DNA from: Octopus vulgaris
Taxonomy: Eukaryota
NCBI GenBank assembly: GCA_951406725.2
Contig: OX597831.1
Span: forward strand, 50,406,001-50,470,000
Reading direction: 5' to 3'
Length of the DNA stretch: 64,000 nt
This document shows, piece by piece, positions 913 to 60,670 of this stretch (within the stretch, counting starts at the first letter, position 1; each line of letters opens with the position of its first letter). The notes under the pieces are model-generated. The model had not been told where the DNA came from. It did not search any database and worked only from the letters and a program-made list of their open reading frames with translations. The position numbers were made by a program, and so were the translations under genes.

Positions 913-977
913 TTAGTATACTACTAATGATTTCGTGGTCATCATATATTACCATGTTCACCACTCATCAGTACGAA
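913..977 (-). ncRNA. Type I hammerhead ribozyme motif, intact core
   Basis: Minus strand ttcgta-CTGATGA-gtggt...accac-GAAA-tcattagta-GTA-tactaa, followed by a ~130 nt tail ending at the (TA)n at ~750-778. Confidence 0.65.
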
Positions 978-3900
978 CATAACCGGGAAAAATAATATAT
1001 AAACATCTGTACATATCAAACGAACACAACACATCCAGAAGAGCATATACAAATGTTTATATTTATAAAACCAATTTAAAGGGGTCCCTGCCTAGTTAAT
1101 CTCGCCACCTGTGTATAATATATAGCGGTTCAATATTTGTAAATAAAATATAAGGATAAAATATCTATAAAATTCCATCGAGTAGCCAGCATTGATTCAA
1201 ATACGACTCTGCTAGAGATCAAACGCATCGAAGAAGGGAAAATATATTTTCAGACATTCGATGTTTTCATCTATTTGCCATTCTTTTATTAGCCATTTTA
1301 CTTGTGCATTAATCCTATTTAAAAATGGAAGCGAACAATCACACCAAATTTCATACTCTGCTTTGTACGTGTCCAACAAAAGAGCCATCCTTTACATTTC
1401 TTTGCGTTGTTTTTGGTGTATAATCATCACAGTGTATAACGTAATTATATAACAAATGAGACAAGAGAATATGTTACACAATTCAATTTTCTATCAGTAT
1501 AGTCTCCTCTTCTTGATATTTTTATACTTTTTTTCTGCTTTCTCCCATTTTGTTTTAATATTTCTCTTTTCCATCATTATATCTTGCTATATTTTTTACT
1601 GACGTTTTCTGTGTTATATCCATTTATTATAACCAGTTTCCTATTCATTCTCCTTCTGGAGATTGAGAACAGGATCTTTCAATTTTTCGCCTCTTTTGTT
1701 TAATTTATATCGTTTTATTTTTAGTCATAATCAAACGTAGACTGATTTTCTGCACTTAACAAGAATGGCTGTTTAGATCTACATCGTTATGTGCATAGAA
1801 AAAACGTGAACATATTGGCACAGTTTCATATGATTTTTCTGTCTGTTGTTAACACACTGAGCATGAGAAACTCTTCAAACAATTTTTGTCAGTGAGAAAG
1901 GAACACGCAAAAGTATTTCAACATGTGCATTAAGTAGGTAATGTTTTATCGCTACAATAGTTAGAACGTGTATCGTTACTACACAGAACTTTATTGATAA
2001 TTATTATTGCTTGACCACGGCCTTCTCTGATCAAACAATCTAGTAATCAAATGCGTTCCATCACTCACATCCCAGTCTTTTAGAAGTCTCTAGGACAACA
2101 ATTTTGTTAACATCGGTTATAAAATTTGTACAGTTCCATTTAAAAGAAAATTAGATGATTATTTTAGCAAGAGAGATGCAGGAACAACGTGCAGGTGCCC
2201 TTGTTGGTTCAATTCATTTGTAATATTACAAATGCAGCGGTGGTGTATTGGAAATTGTGGAATGCCTGACAAAGTATTTTAACGAGTATAGTCTGCGTAA
2301 CTGACTTTACTTTTTATATTTCCAGTATCAATAAAATATACGCGAGTATACTAGTATACAATCATTTATACATACATACATACATACATACATACATACA
2401 TACATACATACATATATATATAATATATATATATATATATATATATATATATATATATATATATATATATATATATATATATATATATATATGATATTGT
2501 ATTGTTCTTTATGTTATAACCAATTTAATCGACTTAGTAGTATTGGTCCATGACTACATAAATGTAATCAATATTCGTCTAAATATTTACGGCTTTATAT
2601 TTTTTTAATGGCATCGAAACAGTTTTATAATTCGATCTTACAATCTTCAAATTTATTGAAGATATACAACTTCGCATATATATACATACACACACACACA
2701 CATATATATATATATATATATATATATATATATATATATATATGTATGTATGTATATATATACACATATATGTATGTGTATATATACATATATATATATA
2801 TATATATATGCATATATGTATATACAAACACACCTATATGTATGTATGTTTGTATGTGTGTGTGTGTGTGTGTGTGCGCGCGTAAACAAAACTATAAAAG
2901 ATATTTCGGATCGTTTTAAGATGATTGTAAAATCTTTAACATTCCAATTTCAATATACCTTAATTAAATGTCACTTTTATTGTAGATTCTAAATTCTTTC
3001 TTTCCTCAAAATATGCAGTTCTCTCTCGTTATATTTTGTCATTCACTGTAATCATTTCCTTTATAAATTATTGTTTCTGTCTTAAACTTCTTTATCGTTT
3101 CTTTGTTATGCCCACCAGTCTAACTAGCGTTAACTTTCGTTGTCATGACAATGTTGTTATTGCTATTATCATTTTAAATCTGGTCAGAAAAATGTTGTTC
3201 AAATATATAGCAAGGTGAGCAAAGGAAAGTACTTTAATATTTGACTATTTTATAACGGCTAATTTTTCGCTTAAACTTTGAAAGTTATATCATTATTTAT
3301 CGATTTCGATTTTTACTTTTATATGTGTGCAAAAGTTATCTCACTAATTTCGTTGTGTTTCGTTTCTTTTACATATTTTATCGTTTTACAAATTTCGATC
3401 TTTCTTAAAAATTTAGAAAATGTGTTGCTTTTAACCTTTGTTGGGTAGCATATGGCCTATAAAAACAGACACCTACGAATTCTTGGAAAAAGTTATTTCC
3501 GATGTTTCTTCAGACATTTTACGTTTTATGTTAAAATCTTGCGGGGGTAAATTTTACGTTTGTTCATTCAGGATCGATAGAATAAAGTATTGTGAAGTAT
3601 TGGAGCGTATAGTAAGGACTGTTTTCCCAGAAATGTCGTGGACATGTGCCTAAATCAAAAACAGCTATTATTCGACATTCTAGCAATCACAGTTAATCAG
3701 TCAGTCAATCAACTGGAAAAATCTTTCACCGTTCACCACCTCAACAGTGACACGTCCATGATACTCTGGACCAGTACCTGAGTTTTCATTCAAATTATAG
3801 TTCTATATATTACAAAGTTGACATATATGCGTGTGGTATATAAACATGAAGAAAACAACCAGGACGGAGGTGTTTCTCCTAGTTTATTTAATTACATTTT

Positions 3901-4138
3901 CAGCATGACAATGGCTCCCCAACATTACAAGGGTATCATTAATATATTTCTTTTTACTGTTTTGTTCATGTAATTTCTATCCATCCACCCTTTATCATAT
4001 ACGTGAGTGTATGTGTGCCTGTGCGTATATGTGTGTGTTTGCTTGTGTTTATATATATATATATATATATATATATATATATATATATATATATATATAT
4101 ATATATATGCATATTTATATATATATATATATAAATAG

Positions 4139-4450
4139 TGAAGGCGCATGGCTCAGTGGTTGCGATCGTGAGGTTGTGAGTTTGAATCCCAGACCGGGCT
4201 GCGTGTTGTGTTCTTGAGCAAAACAGTTTATTTCACGTTGCTCCAGGTCACTCAGCTGTAGAAATGAGTTGCGATGTCACCGGTGCCAAACTGTATCTGC
4301 TTTTCCCTTGGACAACATCAATGGTGTGGTGAGGGGAGGCCAGTATGCATGGGCGACTGCTGGTCTTCCTTAAAAAACAACCTTGCCCGGGCTTGTGCCT
4401 CGGAGGGTAACTTTCTAGGTGCCACGGTCAGCCATGACCAAAGGGGATCT
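4139..4450 (+). mobile_element. tRNA-derived SINE (third family) with (CAA)n tail
   Basis: A box tggctcagtgg, B box gagtttgaatccc, central ttgtgttcttgagcaaaacag, then (caa)n. Confidence 0.7.
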
Positions 4451-4989
4451 CAACAACAACAACAACAACAACAACAGCAACATATAATTAAAGATAATCA
4501 CAAAATTAAAAATGAAATTATAAATTAATATGGGATTGATAATATAAGTATAAATAAAATATTCTTAATAGTGGGTTGATTAGCCAGAGTGATAACTGTA
4601 ATAATAGAATAAATGTTTACGCGGATGGAAATATCGAATATCAAGCTAATTACTGTGGTGACATGTTCACTAGTGGAGAGTAATTGCTAATAATATTAAA
4701 ACTCGACAAATCGACTACTATCATACTGAAAGGGAAAAATAAAAATGAATGGAAAATTCAAGCTAATCATAACGCTAATATATCCACAGCAAATACCTAC
4801 CACAGTAATAGGACTAAAAGGATCATTAAGTCTTGCAATGTAACTGCTACGAGTAACGGAAGGGATAGGGATGGAGCTCGTCATAATTTAAATAACTCTA
4901 CCAAAAGTATTGGCAATTGTATTGATAGGAATAGAAATCATACGATTCATCATAATGGAAATTATGAAGATATATACCATAAGATAATA

Positions 4990-58430: not shown

Positions 58431-58799
58431 AAGATAAGTACTTCATTAGTTGTTTTATATACAAACATTCCACTTTATTCGACTTATATATAATTCTGTG
58501 CACATTCACACAAATTCGAATACATACATACACACACACACACACACACACACACATATATGTTATACATATACAGATAGATACATACATGTGTGTATAT
58601 ATATATGCATACACATCCACACTCGAACACACACATATAAATATGCCTATATACACAAGCATGTATACACATATGCACGTACATAGCTATAAACATAAAT
58701 GCACATATCTTCGAATACACGCACATCGGTATGTACATAAGGCATACAATCATACACGCATAACTCATCATAACATTTAACTCGATAGTATTTATTTAC

Positions 58800-60330
58800 A
58801 TTCAAGTGTGGTTAAATTAATGCTTCTATTAAATACATTCACCTAAAATGATAAGTGTATGTATTTATGTACCATATAATCAACATGGTGAATATATATT
58901 GTTTGTTTACATTCTGGATAGATAGAAATCTTGTGCATTTCGTAGTTTATAGAGTATTTCGTGATATTATCAATATATGGGAATTTAGTTCTTCTATACT
59001 ATTCAATTAATAAATATTGTTAATTACAGCTATAAAATAATATTAACGTAATATAATAGGCCAATACTTTATTTGAGATATAACTATACATTAGTTGATT
59101 GAGTTATCTTTCTTACATAATTTGTTTTTAATTTACAGTTAATCTTAACTTTACAATTACAATTTTCATTTAAATTCTTATGTATGTCATTTGAAGTATT
59201 ATTAGGAAGAGATTTAATATGGGTTATTTCTCTTCTATCATTATGGTATTTGTGGCCGATAACATTTGTATTTAGGTTTGTGGGGGTTAAGTTGGTTTTG
59301 AGGTGAATTATTGTAATGAATATTTCTGTTTCTCTAAAAAAATATCAAATTTATTATTGTTAATAAATGATAAATTCGTAAACATATTACGGGTTAAACT
59401 AAAACAAACTTTGAAATGTTTATAATTGATAATTTCACTATATTATCATTGTTAAAATGCTTATAAATAGATTTGTATATAGATTTTATTAAATTATTTT
59501 CAATTATGCATAGCATATGGAATGATGAACGAAATCTTATAAGATTCTTCAGAATTATTATTAGAGAGTTTAGGATCCATTTTTGATTTAGTAAAATTCA
59601 TGAAAACCGTATATATTATATTTTTTCTATTAGGAGTATTAAGTAGATGACCAACGGTATGAGTATTCAAGGGAGTTATCACTTTATTATTATCATGATT
59701 TATTATTTACATGTTGGTCACTATAAGCATAATTATAATTATTTATCAGTTGCTTATTATTTTATTGATATTATATCTATAAGATAATTTAATATTAGTT
59801 TTCTCTACATTGGTTTCTATCTCGATATTGATGCTTATATATTTAGTTTATTTTTCTTACCACTTAACAGTTTATTATCAAATGATTCATTAATTCTACG
59901 TTTGTTTTTCATTATAGGTTTAATTTTTATTGAATTAGCAGTCTTTTCAGTTTTAGTTTCTGTTGTATAATTAATTCTATCATTTGTAATTTTATCATTA
60001 GGTGAATGTTATTTTATCTTGTCTCTATACACGACTTTAATAGAGCCATGTTGTAATAATCTGCTTGTTTCATAAATATTTTTTTCATCATATCAGATTT
60101 GATATTCTTTTCTCTAAGTTGAAGATTAACGTGTTTTAATTGATCTTCGATAATTACTTAAGAAATTAATATATCTTAAATTGGTATTTAATTTGAGAAA
60201 AGATTCGTGTTTACCAGTTATAAGGTTGAAATTAACTGAGTATTTATCCTTTTCGATAGAGATGGATAGTCCGTATCTTCTGAAAAATTTATAGCGTTTT
60301 TTCTTAAATAATTTCTAATACATGACAGAC
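58800..60330 (-). pseudogene. AT-rich, heavily decayed Naiad-type PLE (RT thumb, linker, endonuclease start)
   Basis: Minus strand: KKRYKFFRRYGLSISIEKDKYSVNF...LRYINFLSNY; KISFIIPY; ENCNCKVKINCKL. Confidence 0.6.
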
Positions 60331-60565
60331 TAAACTTATATAACAAGAAGTTGTTGGAATAATTGAGGATAGCCATGTTTAATTCATGGAAAGAAAATTA
60401 CCATACAGATAAGGTAGCATTTCTTTTTACCAACCTTTCTTTTTCCTACTTTTAGTTCACTTGTCTGTTCACTATTTACTAAAGTAACAGTATTTCAATA
60501 ACTTCTAGTTATATAATTTTAGTTTGTCATGTACGATGTAAATAGCAAAATAAGTCCATATAAGA

Positions 60566-60670
60566 TAGACCTGAAGATTGGCAATATAATCGTTTTAATA
60601 TGGTATTGTATAGAGACGTTCTATTTCAGCAATATTGAGGAATATGTTGTCATGAAACGCGCGTAGTCTA
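60566..60670 (+). ncRNA. Type I hammerhead ribozyme, intact core, extended stem II
   Basis: tagac-CTGAAGA-t-tggcaatata...tatgttgtca-t-GAAAC-gcgc-GTA-gtcta. Stem I is a perfect 5 bp; stem II is ~10 bp; loop III is palindromic GCGC. Confidence 0.85.

Follow-up and report, generated by a model that had tools for sequence, protein, structure and literature searches.

A 64,000-nucleotide stretch of the Octopus vulgaris genome (contig OX597831.1, positions 50,406,001 to 50,470,000; G000:C18:50406001-50470000 in our coordinates), hereafter the window, carries sequences that resemble the hammerhead ribozyme. We conclude, with a probability of about 0.85, that these represent hammerhead folds of type I, located where multi-copy repeats finish at their 3′ ends next to (TA)n, some joined to reading frames of Neptune- or Hydra-type Penelope-like elements (PLEs) and some lying in head-to-tail units without an open reading frame (ORF), likely retrozymes moved by Penelope enzymes. 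A first-pass annotation had listed 16 motifs, and the motif text was present as described at all 16 positions. Fifteen of them are members of repeat families with many copies, and in these families the 3′ end adjoins (TA)n. The assignment to PLEs or retrozyme-like elements was borne out: a Neptune ORF is joined to the motif at 53512, fragments of a Hydra-type endonuclease precede the hammerheads in families H and F, and ORF-less, circularly permuted units make up families C, E and G.

The motifs exceed chance expectation

The window has a GC content of 35% and contains ∼ 115 TA tracts, and the motifs might be chance matches within AT-rich, hairpin-rich DNA. A strict type I descriptor gave two matches in the window versus 0.01 to 0.04 in 100 dinucleotide shuffles. 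Using a scoring descriptor, we obtained six intact-core matches (913, 31866, 33295, 40961, 60566 and 17082) compared with 0.15 (maximum, one) across 20 shuffles. The match at 17082-17230 is loosely paired and probably due to chance. In the genome sample described below, there were 37 intact cores per Mb, against 0 to 4 in shuffles and 1 or 2 for decoy cores on real sequence. In favour of chance, with one mismatch allowed at a score of 13 over 400 kb, shuffles gave 7.9 matches versus 27, and the motifs at 33771 and 17082 may belong to this class. Conservation within families, compensatory changes and a fixed position upstream of the 3′ end all argue against it. We regard the chance explanation as refuted for 15 of the 16 motifs, and as hardly tenable as a general account.

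Fifteen of the 16 motifs were followed by a (TA)5 tract at a distance of up to 300 nt, compared with 26% of window positions, in agreement with the claim that they lie mostly one short tail from a TA microsatellite. The sixteenth, the single-copy hammerhead-like motif at 33771-33835 (+), is a possible real hammerhead. It is unconfirmed because it was the only candidate in the genome search, its stem III is 1 bp, (TA) lies 1,480 nt away downstream and the descriptor was fitted afterwards: the scoring descriptor misses it, and relaxing the descriptor post hoc gave two matches versus 0.01. Of six cores annotated as intact, five (913, 31866, 33295, 40961 and 60566) were recovered by the scoring descriptor. 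Another hammerhead-like motif (U3-A8, A9G) was seen at 46093-46139 (+), with TA 148 nt downstream and no second copy among the loci examined.

No match to the Rfam hammerhead models reached the gathering score in the window; the stems of the window motifs are long or minimal. Nor was a hammerhead present among the best 150 of 369 window matches ranked by E-value, or found in the family D fold-back. In the genome search, six of 73 scored candidates reached the gathering score. Rfam microRNA matches were discarded as hairpin artefacts.

Families, insertions and 3′ ends

The 16 motifs represent 11 families and about 12 insertions. Three pairs (31442/31866, 40961/41050 and 54427/54572) are inverted copies within one insertion, and the motifs at 37951, 49205 and 53512 belong to three related Neptune-type subfamilies. 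Since a repeat finder was swamped by microsatellites, repeats were obtained from masked self-BLAST. We searched the genome (2.8 Gb in 227 contigs) with eight family queries, each with at least 40 scored matches and between 118 and 2,880 candidates, and examined the best 20 to 30 copies per family; families B and I were followed within loci from the other searches.

Of 200 distinct copies from eight families (each count includes the window copy), 178 had a (TA)4+ tract no more than 135 nt from the family 3′ end, compared with a background of 14.5%. This result supports the proposed targeting of TA tracts. Inverted 5′ copies with a hammerhead were found in five families (D, 16/25; E, 10/30; H, 7/25; K, 6/24; C, 3/27 loci). 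The 3′ end falls at two alternative sites in several families: in D at query positions 174 and 247, E at 278 and 352, K ∼ 40 nt apart and C ∼ 100 nt apart. The resulting tails measure 73 nt in D, 74 nt in E and 73 nt in a young Hydra family (TA at +24 or +97). These equal tails point to a Hydra reverse transcriptase (RT) as the mobiliser, as a coincidence of lengths rather than a test.

Family D forms a fold-back insertion at 40874-41266, with an intact hammerhead at 40961-41003 (-), a second with a private A6G at 41050-41092 (+), and the 73-nt tail on the direct copy. The family K fold-back at 54320-54677 carries hammerhead-like motifs at 54427-54466 (-) and 54572-54611 (+), both with the fixed U3-A8 and A13C, and a tail of ∼ 40 nt. 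Copies of both families are young (98-99% identical); no ORF was seen in D and no partner ORF was found for K. Family I is represented at 29470-29790 (-), with a hammerhead at 29681-29728 (G12A) and no partner ORF found, and at 30800-30988 (+), where the core of the hammerhead at 30858-30907 has decayed and the copy ends at (TA)9. Neither a partner ORF nor a tandem arrangement was present in the D, I and K copies examined. Protein matches near C (L082, L089, L094), D (L130), K (L279) and G (L196, L206, L207) were rejected, as they belong to neighbouring insertions. At one locus (L147:495-2893), five hammerheads from four families lie within 2.4 kb, indicating hot spots of nested insertion at TA tracts.

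ORF-less, circularly permuted units

The family C insertion (31289-32203) lies between two TA tracts and consists of an inverted 5′ copy and a direct 506-nt unit. The inverted copy contains the hammerhead at 31442-31520 (-), with two core changes. In the direct unit, 31610-31697 is repeated at 32116-32202, and the hammerhead at 31866-31944 has an intact core. This 506-nt terminal redundancy was found at four distinct loci (the window and three others). The family E copy at 33228-33580 (+), with TA on both sides and an intact hammerhead at 33295-33355, is part of a 470-nt ORF-less head-to-tail unit: of 30 E loci, 7 had hammerheads spaced at 467-474 nt, and 13 had the 3′ end fused directly to the linker that lies upstream. 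Family G is a putatively ORF-less, circularly permuted unit of ∼ 470-490 nt; its window copy at 777-1200 (-) ends at (TA)15, and the core of the hammerhead at 913-977 is intact, with stem I damaged. Permutation at ∼ 470-490 nt was seen in four G loci, and in two further loci the hammerheads were 521 and 540 nt apart.

No stop-free stretch longer than 59 aa was present in the C or E units (longest, 58-59 aa), and none of the 30 loci of E or the 27 of C had an ORF linked to it. Predicted circular folding of C and E was more stable than that of 30 shuffles (z of -5.4 and -5.7). Contigs of four runs that we guessed to be RNA covered all 30 bins of the E unit; these contigs carry neither ends nor strand. 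They contained go-back joints, which genomic tandems also explain, and thus do not speak to cleavage, circle formation or expression.

All families could instead be 5′-truncated ends of autonomous PLEs, their head-to-tail units being ordinary partial-tandem pLTRs (pseudo-long terminal repeats), with no independent retrozymes. Families F and H lend this some weight, being ORF-less in most copies yet preceded by an endonuclease in a few; truncated partial tandems are known among PLE insertions (PMC8557442), and our examined set comprised the 20 to 30 best copies per family. Random truncation, however, would vary the period, and the period was constant in many independent loci (E, 467-474 nt; C, ∼ 506 nt; G, ∼ 470-490 nt). 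Furthermore, no reading frame lies between the 3′ end and the next hammerhead in C and E, and a linked ORF was missing from the loci counted above. We therefore consider truncation alone quite unlikely, and C, E and G likely to be retrozymes moved by Penelope enzymes.

A tandem array at L037:2100-4760 (G000:C1:20002100-20004760) has a 359-nt unit, two inverted and five direct hammerheads with a canonical 6-bp stem I and a 4-bp stem II, and TA tracts at both ends. It is a typical young retrozyme array.

Neptune-type elements and the A6U core

The window contains an intact Neptune-type reading frame at 49883-53026 (+), which the first-pass annotation had passed over. It spans 1047 aa from stop to stop and includes DKG, an RT with YIDD (RVT_1, E 1.3e-7), a CX4CxxC linker and a GIY-YIG domain with an internal CxxC (E 3.4e-4, weak, just under the cut-off). 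The linker and GIY-YIG cysteines, at residues 797-805 and 836-849, are shared with Nematis and thus not exclusive. At least 72 genomic copies of this ORF are stop-free and 99-100% identical, and all 30 young loci examined had an identical motif and an identical 3′ end. In the window, the ORF runs into the minimal hammerhead at 53512-53549 (A6U) within the 3′ pLTR (53438-53648, +), which ends at TA. Neither a tandem nor an inverted 5′ pLTR from the same insertion was found for this element (49883-53648).

The family A 3′ end at 49110-49311 (-), with a minimal hammerhead at 49205-49239 and a family-fixed A6U, was considered as an inverted pLTR of the adjacent ORF. It is only 74% identical and is separated by (TA)13, which argues for a separate insertion in a TA tract. 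The family B 3′ end at 37880-38090 (+) has TA on both sides and a minimal hammerhead at 37951-37983 (U4C and A13U in this copy). A and B are 3′ ends of related Neptune subfamilies, and A copies reach the same 3′ region and ORF.

The young Neptune core read CUGUUGA (A6U) in all 30 loci examined. In the Neptune lineage with a four-base loop II, U occupied position 6 in 64 of 66 distinct copies, and the other core positions were kept in 61-64. N7 in the same copies was A in 40, U in 16, C in 5 and G in 5, varying by subfamily. A free N7 with the remaining core fixed is the pattern expected from continued constraint, and from these 66 copies, which are not independent, the A6U core looks still constrained. 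Between A and the young subfamilies, the 31-nt motif was 94% identical and the flanks 72-76%; pairs with old single Neptune copies were less clear (motif, 74-94%; flanks, 61-87%). An A6C variant is described as weak in Mg2+ and active in Mn2+ (PMC7151607, PMC3088659); the term 'A6U' does not occur in the available text of these two papers.

Hydra-type elements

Family H is present as a broken, 5′-truncated Hydra-type PLE at 8262-9580 (-), followed by a TA tract after 8262. Its endonuclease fragment with CxCx5C (9185-9580; E 4e-14) lies upstream of the hammerhead at 8452-8580, which has a long stem II and a private A13C. The family F 3′ end at 60370-60953 (+) contains an intact hammerhead at 60566-60670 with a long stem II and a palindromic stem III, and a longer F copy (L177) has a Hydra-type endonuclease upstream. 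The CxCx5C linker precedes GIY-YIG without CCHH, upstream of the hammerhead, in the window (9185-9580, -), in L177 and in L219. An RT was not recovered for F or H; DKT was found only in the related young family L327.

This young family (L298-L327; e.g., G000:C3:139224539) comprised 150 scored copies, ∼ 98% identical over the endonuclease, with frames of up to 717 aa containing DKT and CxCx5C. All 27 motifs found across 30 loci combined U4C with a shift in the A9/11.1 register. Published work describes the U4C variant as functional in vivo (PMC3088659). U4C cores also recur in unrelated families (L022, L331, L215, L044, L324 and L207, comprising C and G sisters, I, Neptune B and a GIY-YIG element in L207). 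A broken Hydra-type RT fragment matching the L327 protein (E 7e-19) lies at 57639-58323 (-), with no hammerhead assigned.

Core conservation and stem covariation

Cores were set against the type I pattern (CUGANGA, GAAA and UH, with three helices in type I order). The commonest letters were canonical in C, D, E, F, G and H, and non-canonical in family A and the young Neptune family (A6U) and in K (A13C). Intact cores were carried by 22/27 copies of C, 19/20 of D, 11/17 of F, 9/20 of G and 9/25 of H. Since the commonest core is canonical in these families and in E, the changes at 8452, 31442 and 41050 represent private decay. Decay does not account for A6U at 49205/53512 or U3-A8 with A13C at 54427/54572, which are fixed family states; in K, all 25 of the 25 loci had the combination. 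Across the genome, the majority of copies are relics in neutral decay.

Stem covariation, which the first-pass annotation had made a point of checking, was found between sister subfamilies and was almost absent within young families. In a six-sequence alignment of C and its sisters, six pairs had two-sided changes, a number as high in 0 of 500 shuffles; the set is small and related. Two further comparisons also revealed compensatory changes: E against L204 (stems I and III) and D against L338 (stem III). The alignments suggest that selection shows between sister subfamilies.

The hammerhead fold might nevertheless be kept as a structural or protein-binding signal, with cleavage dispensable throughout, including in the ORF-less families. 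The youngest ORF-bearing families have non-canonical cores, and non-canonical states are fixed in three young families (Neptune A6U, 30/30; Hydra U4C, 27/27; K A13C, 25/25). In addition, hammerhead mutants had no effect on in vitro insertion of an Anolis PLE (PMC11167929). A mere signal is difficult to reconcile with the fully canonical commonest cores, N7 being free, of C, D, E, G, F, H and the L037 array, and U4C has been published as functional in vivo (PMC3088659). On balance, we think it unlikely that cleavage is dispensable throughout, while giving this explanation more weight than the other two. Given their non-canonical cores, the youngest ORF-bearing families can probably spread without fast cleavage.

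Proposed mode of spread

As judged from published PLE work, the GIY-YIG endonuclease would cut TA tracts, and RT would begin copying inside the RNA, at either of two sites that lie 60-300 nt beyond the hammerhead. The RT would usually stop early or fold back, leaving short TA-flanked pieces, nearly all with the motif. With the motif only 60-300 nt away from where RT would start, truncation would spare it in almost all copies, and this would explain the short tail between motif and TA. For families C, E and G, we envisage that tandem transcripts would be cleaved by the canonical hammerhead into monomers, which would become circles and be copied for more than one round, giving permuted copies. 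The stem III of C and G is palindromic, and their hammerhead therefore probably acts as a dimer. PLE endonucleases are reported to prefer AT-rich DNA, and RT to start at two internal sites that set an optional tail (PMC11167929). Neptune, Naiad and Hydra insert into (TA)n with truncation and inverted 5′ copies (PMC8557442), and circularisation with more-than-unit copying has been proposed for retrozymes (PMC7229834, PMC4209133).

Several points weigh against the reading of these repeats as PLE ends and retrozymes with hammerheads. Within families, the core varied about as much as its surroundings (H, 0.084/0.068; F, 0.040/0.045; D, 0.005/0.004), as expected for dead copies; only in C was the core clearly less variable (0.017 versus 0.047). 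Cleavage and RNA circles are predicted here, and head-to-tail units could arise from tandem precursors without circles. For many such motifs, cleavage was reported as weak or none (PMC4209133), and 8 of 9 were inactive in published tests (bioRxiv 10.64898/2026.07.22.740005). D, I and K may be either truncated PLE ends or retrozymes, as no ORF partner was found. The Neptune and Hydra assignments are putative, resting on motifs and not on an RT tree; for the Neptune placement, a homologue search yielded proteins without names.

Abundance in the genome

To estimate the density of intact motifs, we sampled 100 evenly chosen 10-kb stretches (72 from C1-C6 and 28 from C7-C23), 1.0 Mb in total. The sample contained 37 intact-core matches in 22 stretches, corresponding to 27 insertion events and 21 sequence families; the L037 array supplied seven of the 37. 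Five shuffles gave 0, 3, 1, 4 and 0 matches, and four decoy cores gave 2, 2, 1 and 2. TA lay within 300 nt downstream of 20 of the 27 events and upstream of nine, compared with a background of 17%. We thus estimate ∼ 80,000-100,000 intact motifs per genome, or ∼ 1 per 27 kb. The same sample held ∼ 40 copies of window families, most with altered cores, and a hand sum of intact and decayed motifs came to 60-70 per Mb, a spacing of about 15 kb per motif. The density in the window thus exceeds the genome average, and the suggested density of one motif per ∼ 4 kb applies to this window only. Counts made with other descriptors are ∼ 9,000 for Xenopus tropicalis (PMC4209133), and ∼ 5,000 for Mytilus and up to 120,000 for axolotl (PMC7229834), whose genome measures 28 Gb (bioRxiv 10.64898/2026.07.22.740005).

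These data would fit a more specific scheme, which is speculative and in our judgement rather doubtful. It posits ∼ 100,000 hammerheads, at a density ten times that of the axolotl count, under two regimes. In one, ORF-less circular-RNA retrozymes with a canonical core would be written into TA tracts by a Hydra-clade RT, sharing the 73-74-nt tail; in the other, the most active autonomous Neptune lineage would run on the fixed A6U core as a selected, protein- or metal-dependent ribozyme variant. Against a clean split, canonical cores also occur in the older Hydra families (F and H) and in certain relatives of the Neptune lineage, and D and K have no assigned class.

Other features of the window

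Fold-back palindromes without a recognised hammerhead lie at 6766-7006, 26151-26328, 45830-46104, 53758-53828 and 62108-62383; they may be old PLE inversions or miniature inverted-repeat transposable elements. Two abundant repeat families resembling short interspersed elements (SINEs), one of which forms an inverted-copy cluster, occur at 16520-16732, 20441-21547 and 35867-36123, and at 7734-8116, 27103-27554, 36662-37058 and 54152-54962; no hammerhead was found in them. A tRNA-like match over the Rfam gathering score (34 bits) at 18383-18457 (+), beside a TA tract, is a tRNA gene or a SINE head. Fragments of DNA transposons were recognised at 22691-23318 (+; CENP-B-type helix-turn-helix, pogo/Tigger-like) and 25378-25716 (+; Transposase_1, mariner-like). 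The segments at 39711-40922 (-) and 42227-42806 (-), interrupted by TA tracts and the D insertion, had no Pfam match; we take them to resemble ends of RTE and CR1 long interspersed elements.

Comparison with known systems

The kind of element described here is already known. Hammerheads in PLE pLTRs, spread as single truncated motifs and opposite-strand pairs, were published by Cervera and de la Pena in 2014 (PMC4209133). Hydra-1_Obim of Octopus bimaculoides combines a hammerhead with (TA)n preference (Craig et al. 2021, PMC8557442 supplement), and retrozymes as non-autonomous PLEs are the subject of Li, Clavereau and Pollet 2026 (bioRxiv 10.64898/2026.07.22.740005). The idea of an uncharted population does not hold, the system being described in PMC4209133, PMC8557442 and PMC7229834. 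Among the literature matches listed, we found no hammerhead census for cephalopods, no Neptune lineage with a fixed A6U core and no report of tails with the same length (73-74 nt) shared by two families without an ORF and a young Hydra family; Repbase or Dfam may already contain these families.

The system is of moderate interest for how abundant the motifs are, for the A6U core that has become fixed and for the marks of PLE insertion that ORF-less units carry. Many short TA-flanked repeats of this genome belong to Penelope ends and retrozymes, which may escape classification by repeat pipelines. As context, an annotation of Octopus vulgaris repeats lists 893 recently active unclassified SINE families and, in its available text, does not mention ribozymes (PMC13282606). 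The young canonical families D and E, beside young families with fixed A6U, U4C and A13C, offer matched natural material on the role of the hammerhead in PLEs, and ORF-less units with a PLE insertion signature would give structural support for PLE-driven mobilisation of retrozymes.

Our Neptune-type elements share with published Neptune PLEs (PMC4209133, PMC8557442) the RT with a C-terminal GIY-YIG and CX2-5CxxC linker, the minimal type I motif, in which A9 is followed by one additional nucleotide and a CG palindrome stands in for stem III, the microsatellite bias and 5′ truncation. They differ in the fixed A6U core of the dominant lineage, and the window copy lacks an upstream tandem pLTR. 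With described Hydra PLEs (PMC8557442), our Hydra-type elements have in common DKT, the CxCx5C linker, a hammerhead near the 3′ end, (TA)n preference and inverted 5′ copies; here there are several families, one of them young with the U4C variant core, and tails are ∼ 73 nt versus the 30-40 bp described for PLEs. The metazoan non-LTR (long terminal repeat) retrozymes (Cervera and de la Pena 2020, PMC7229834; bioRxiv 10.64898/2026.07.22.740005) likewise lack an ORF, are low in GC and consist of head-to-tail units that span some hundreds of bases and each contain a single type I hammerhead; their predicted circles are also well self-paired, and they co-occur with PLEs. In contrast to these, the units described here have predicted circles, are mostly dispersed as 0.7-1.6-unit insertions in TA tracts, and bear PLE-type inverted 5′ copies and two 3′ ends.

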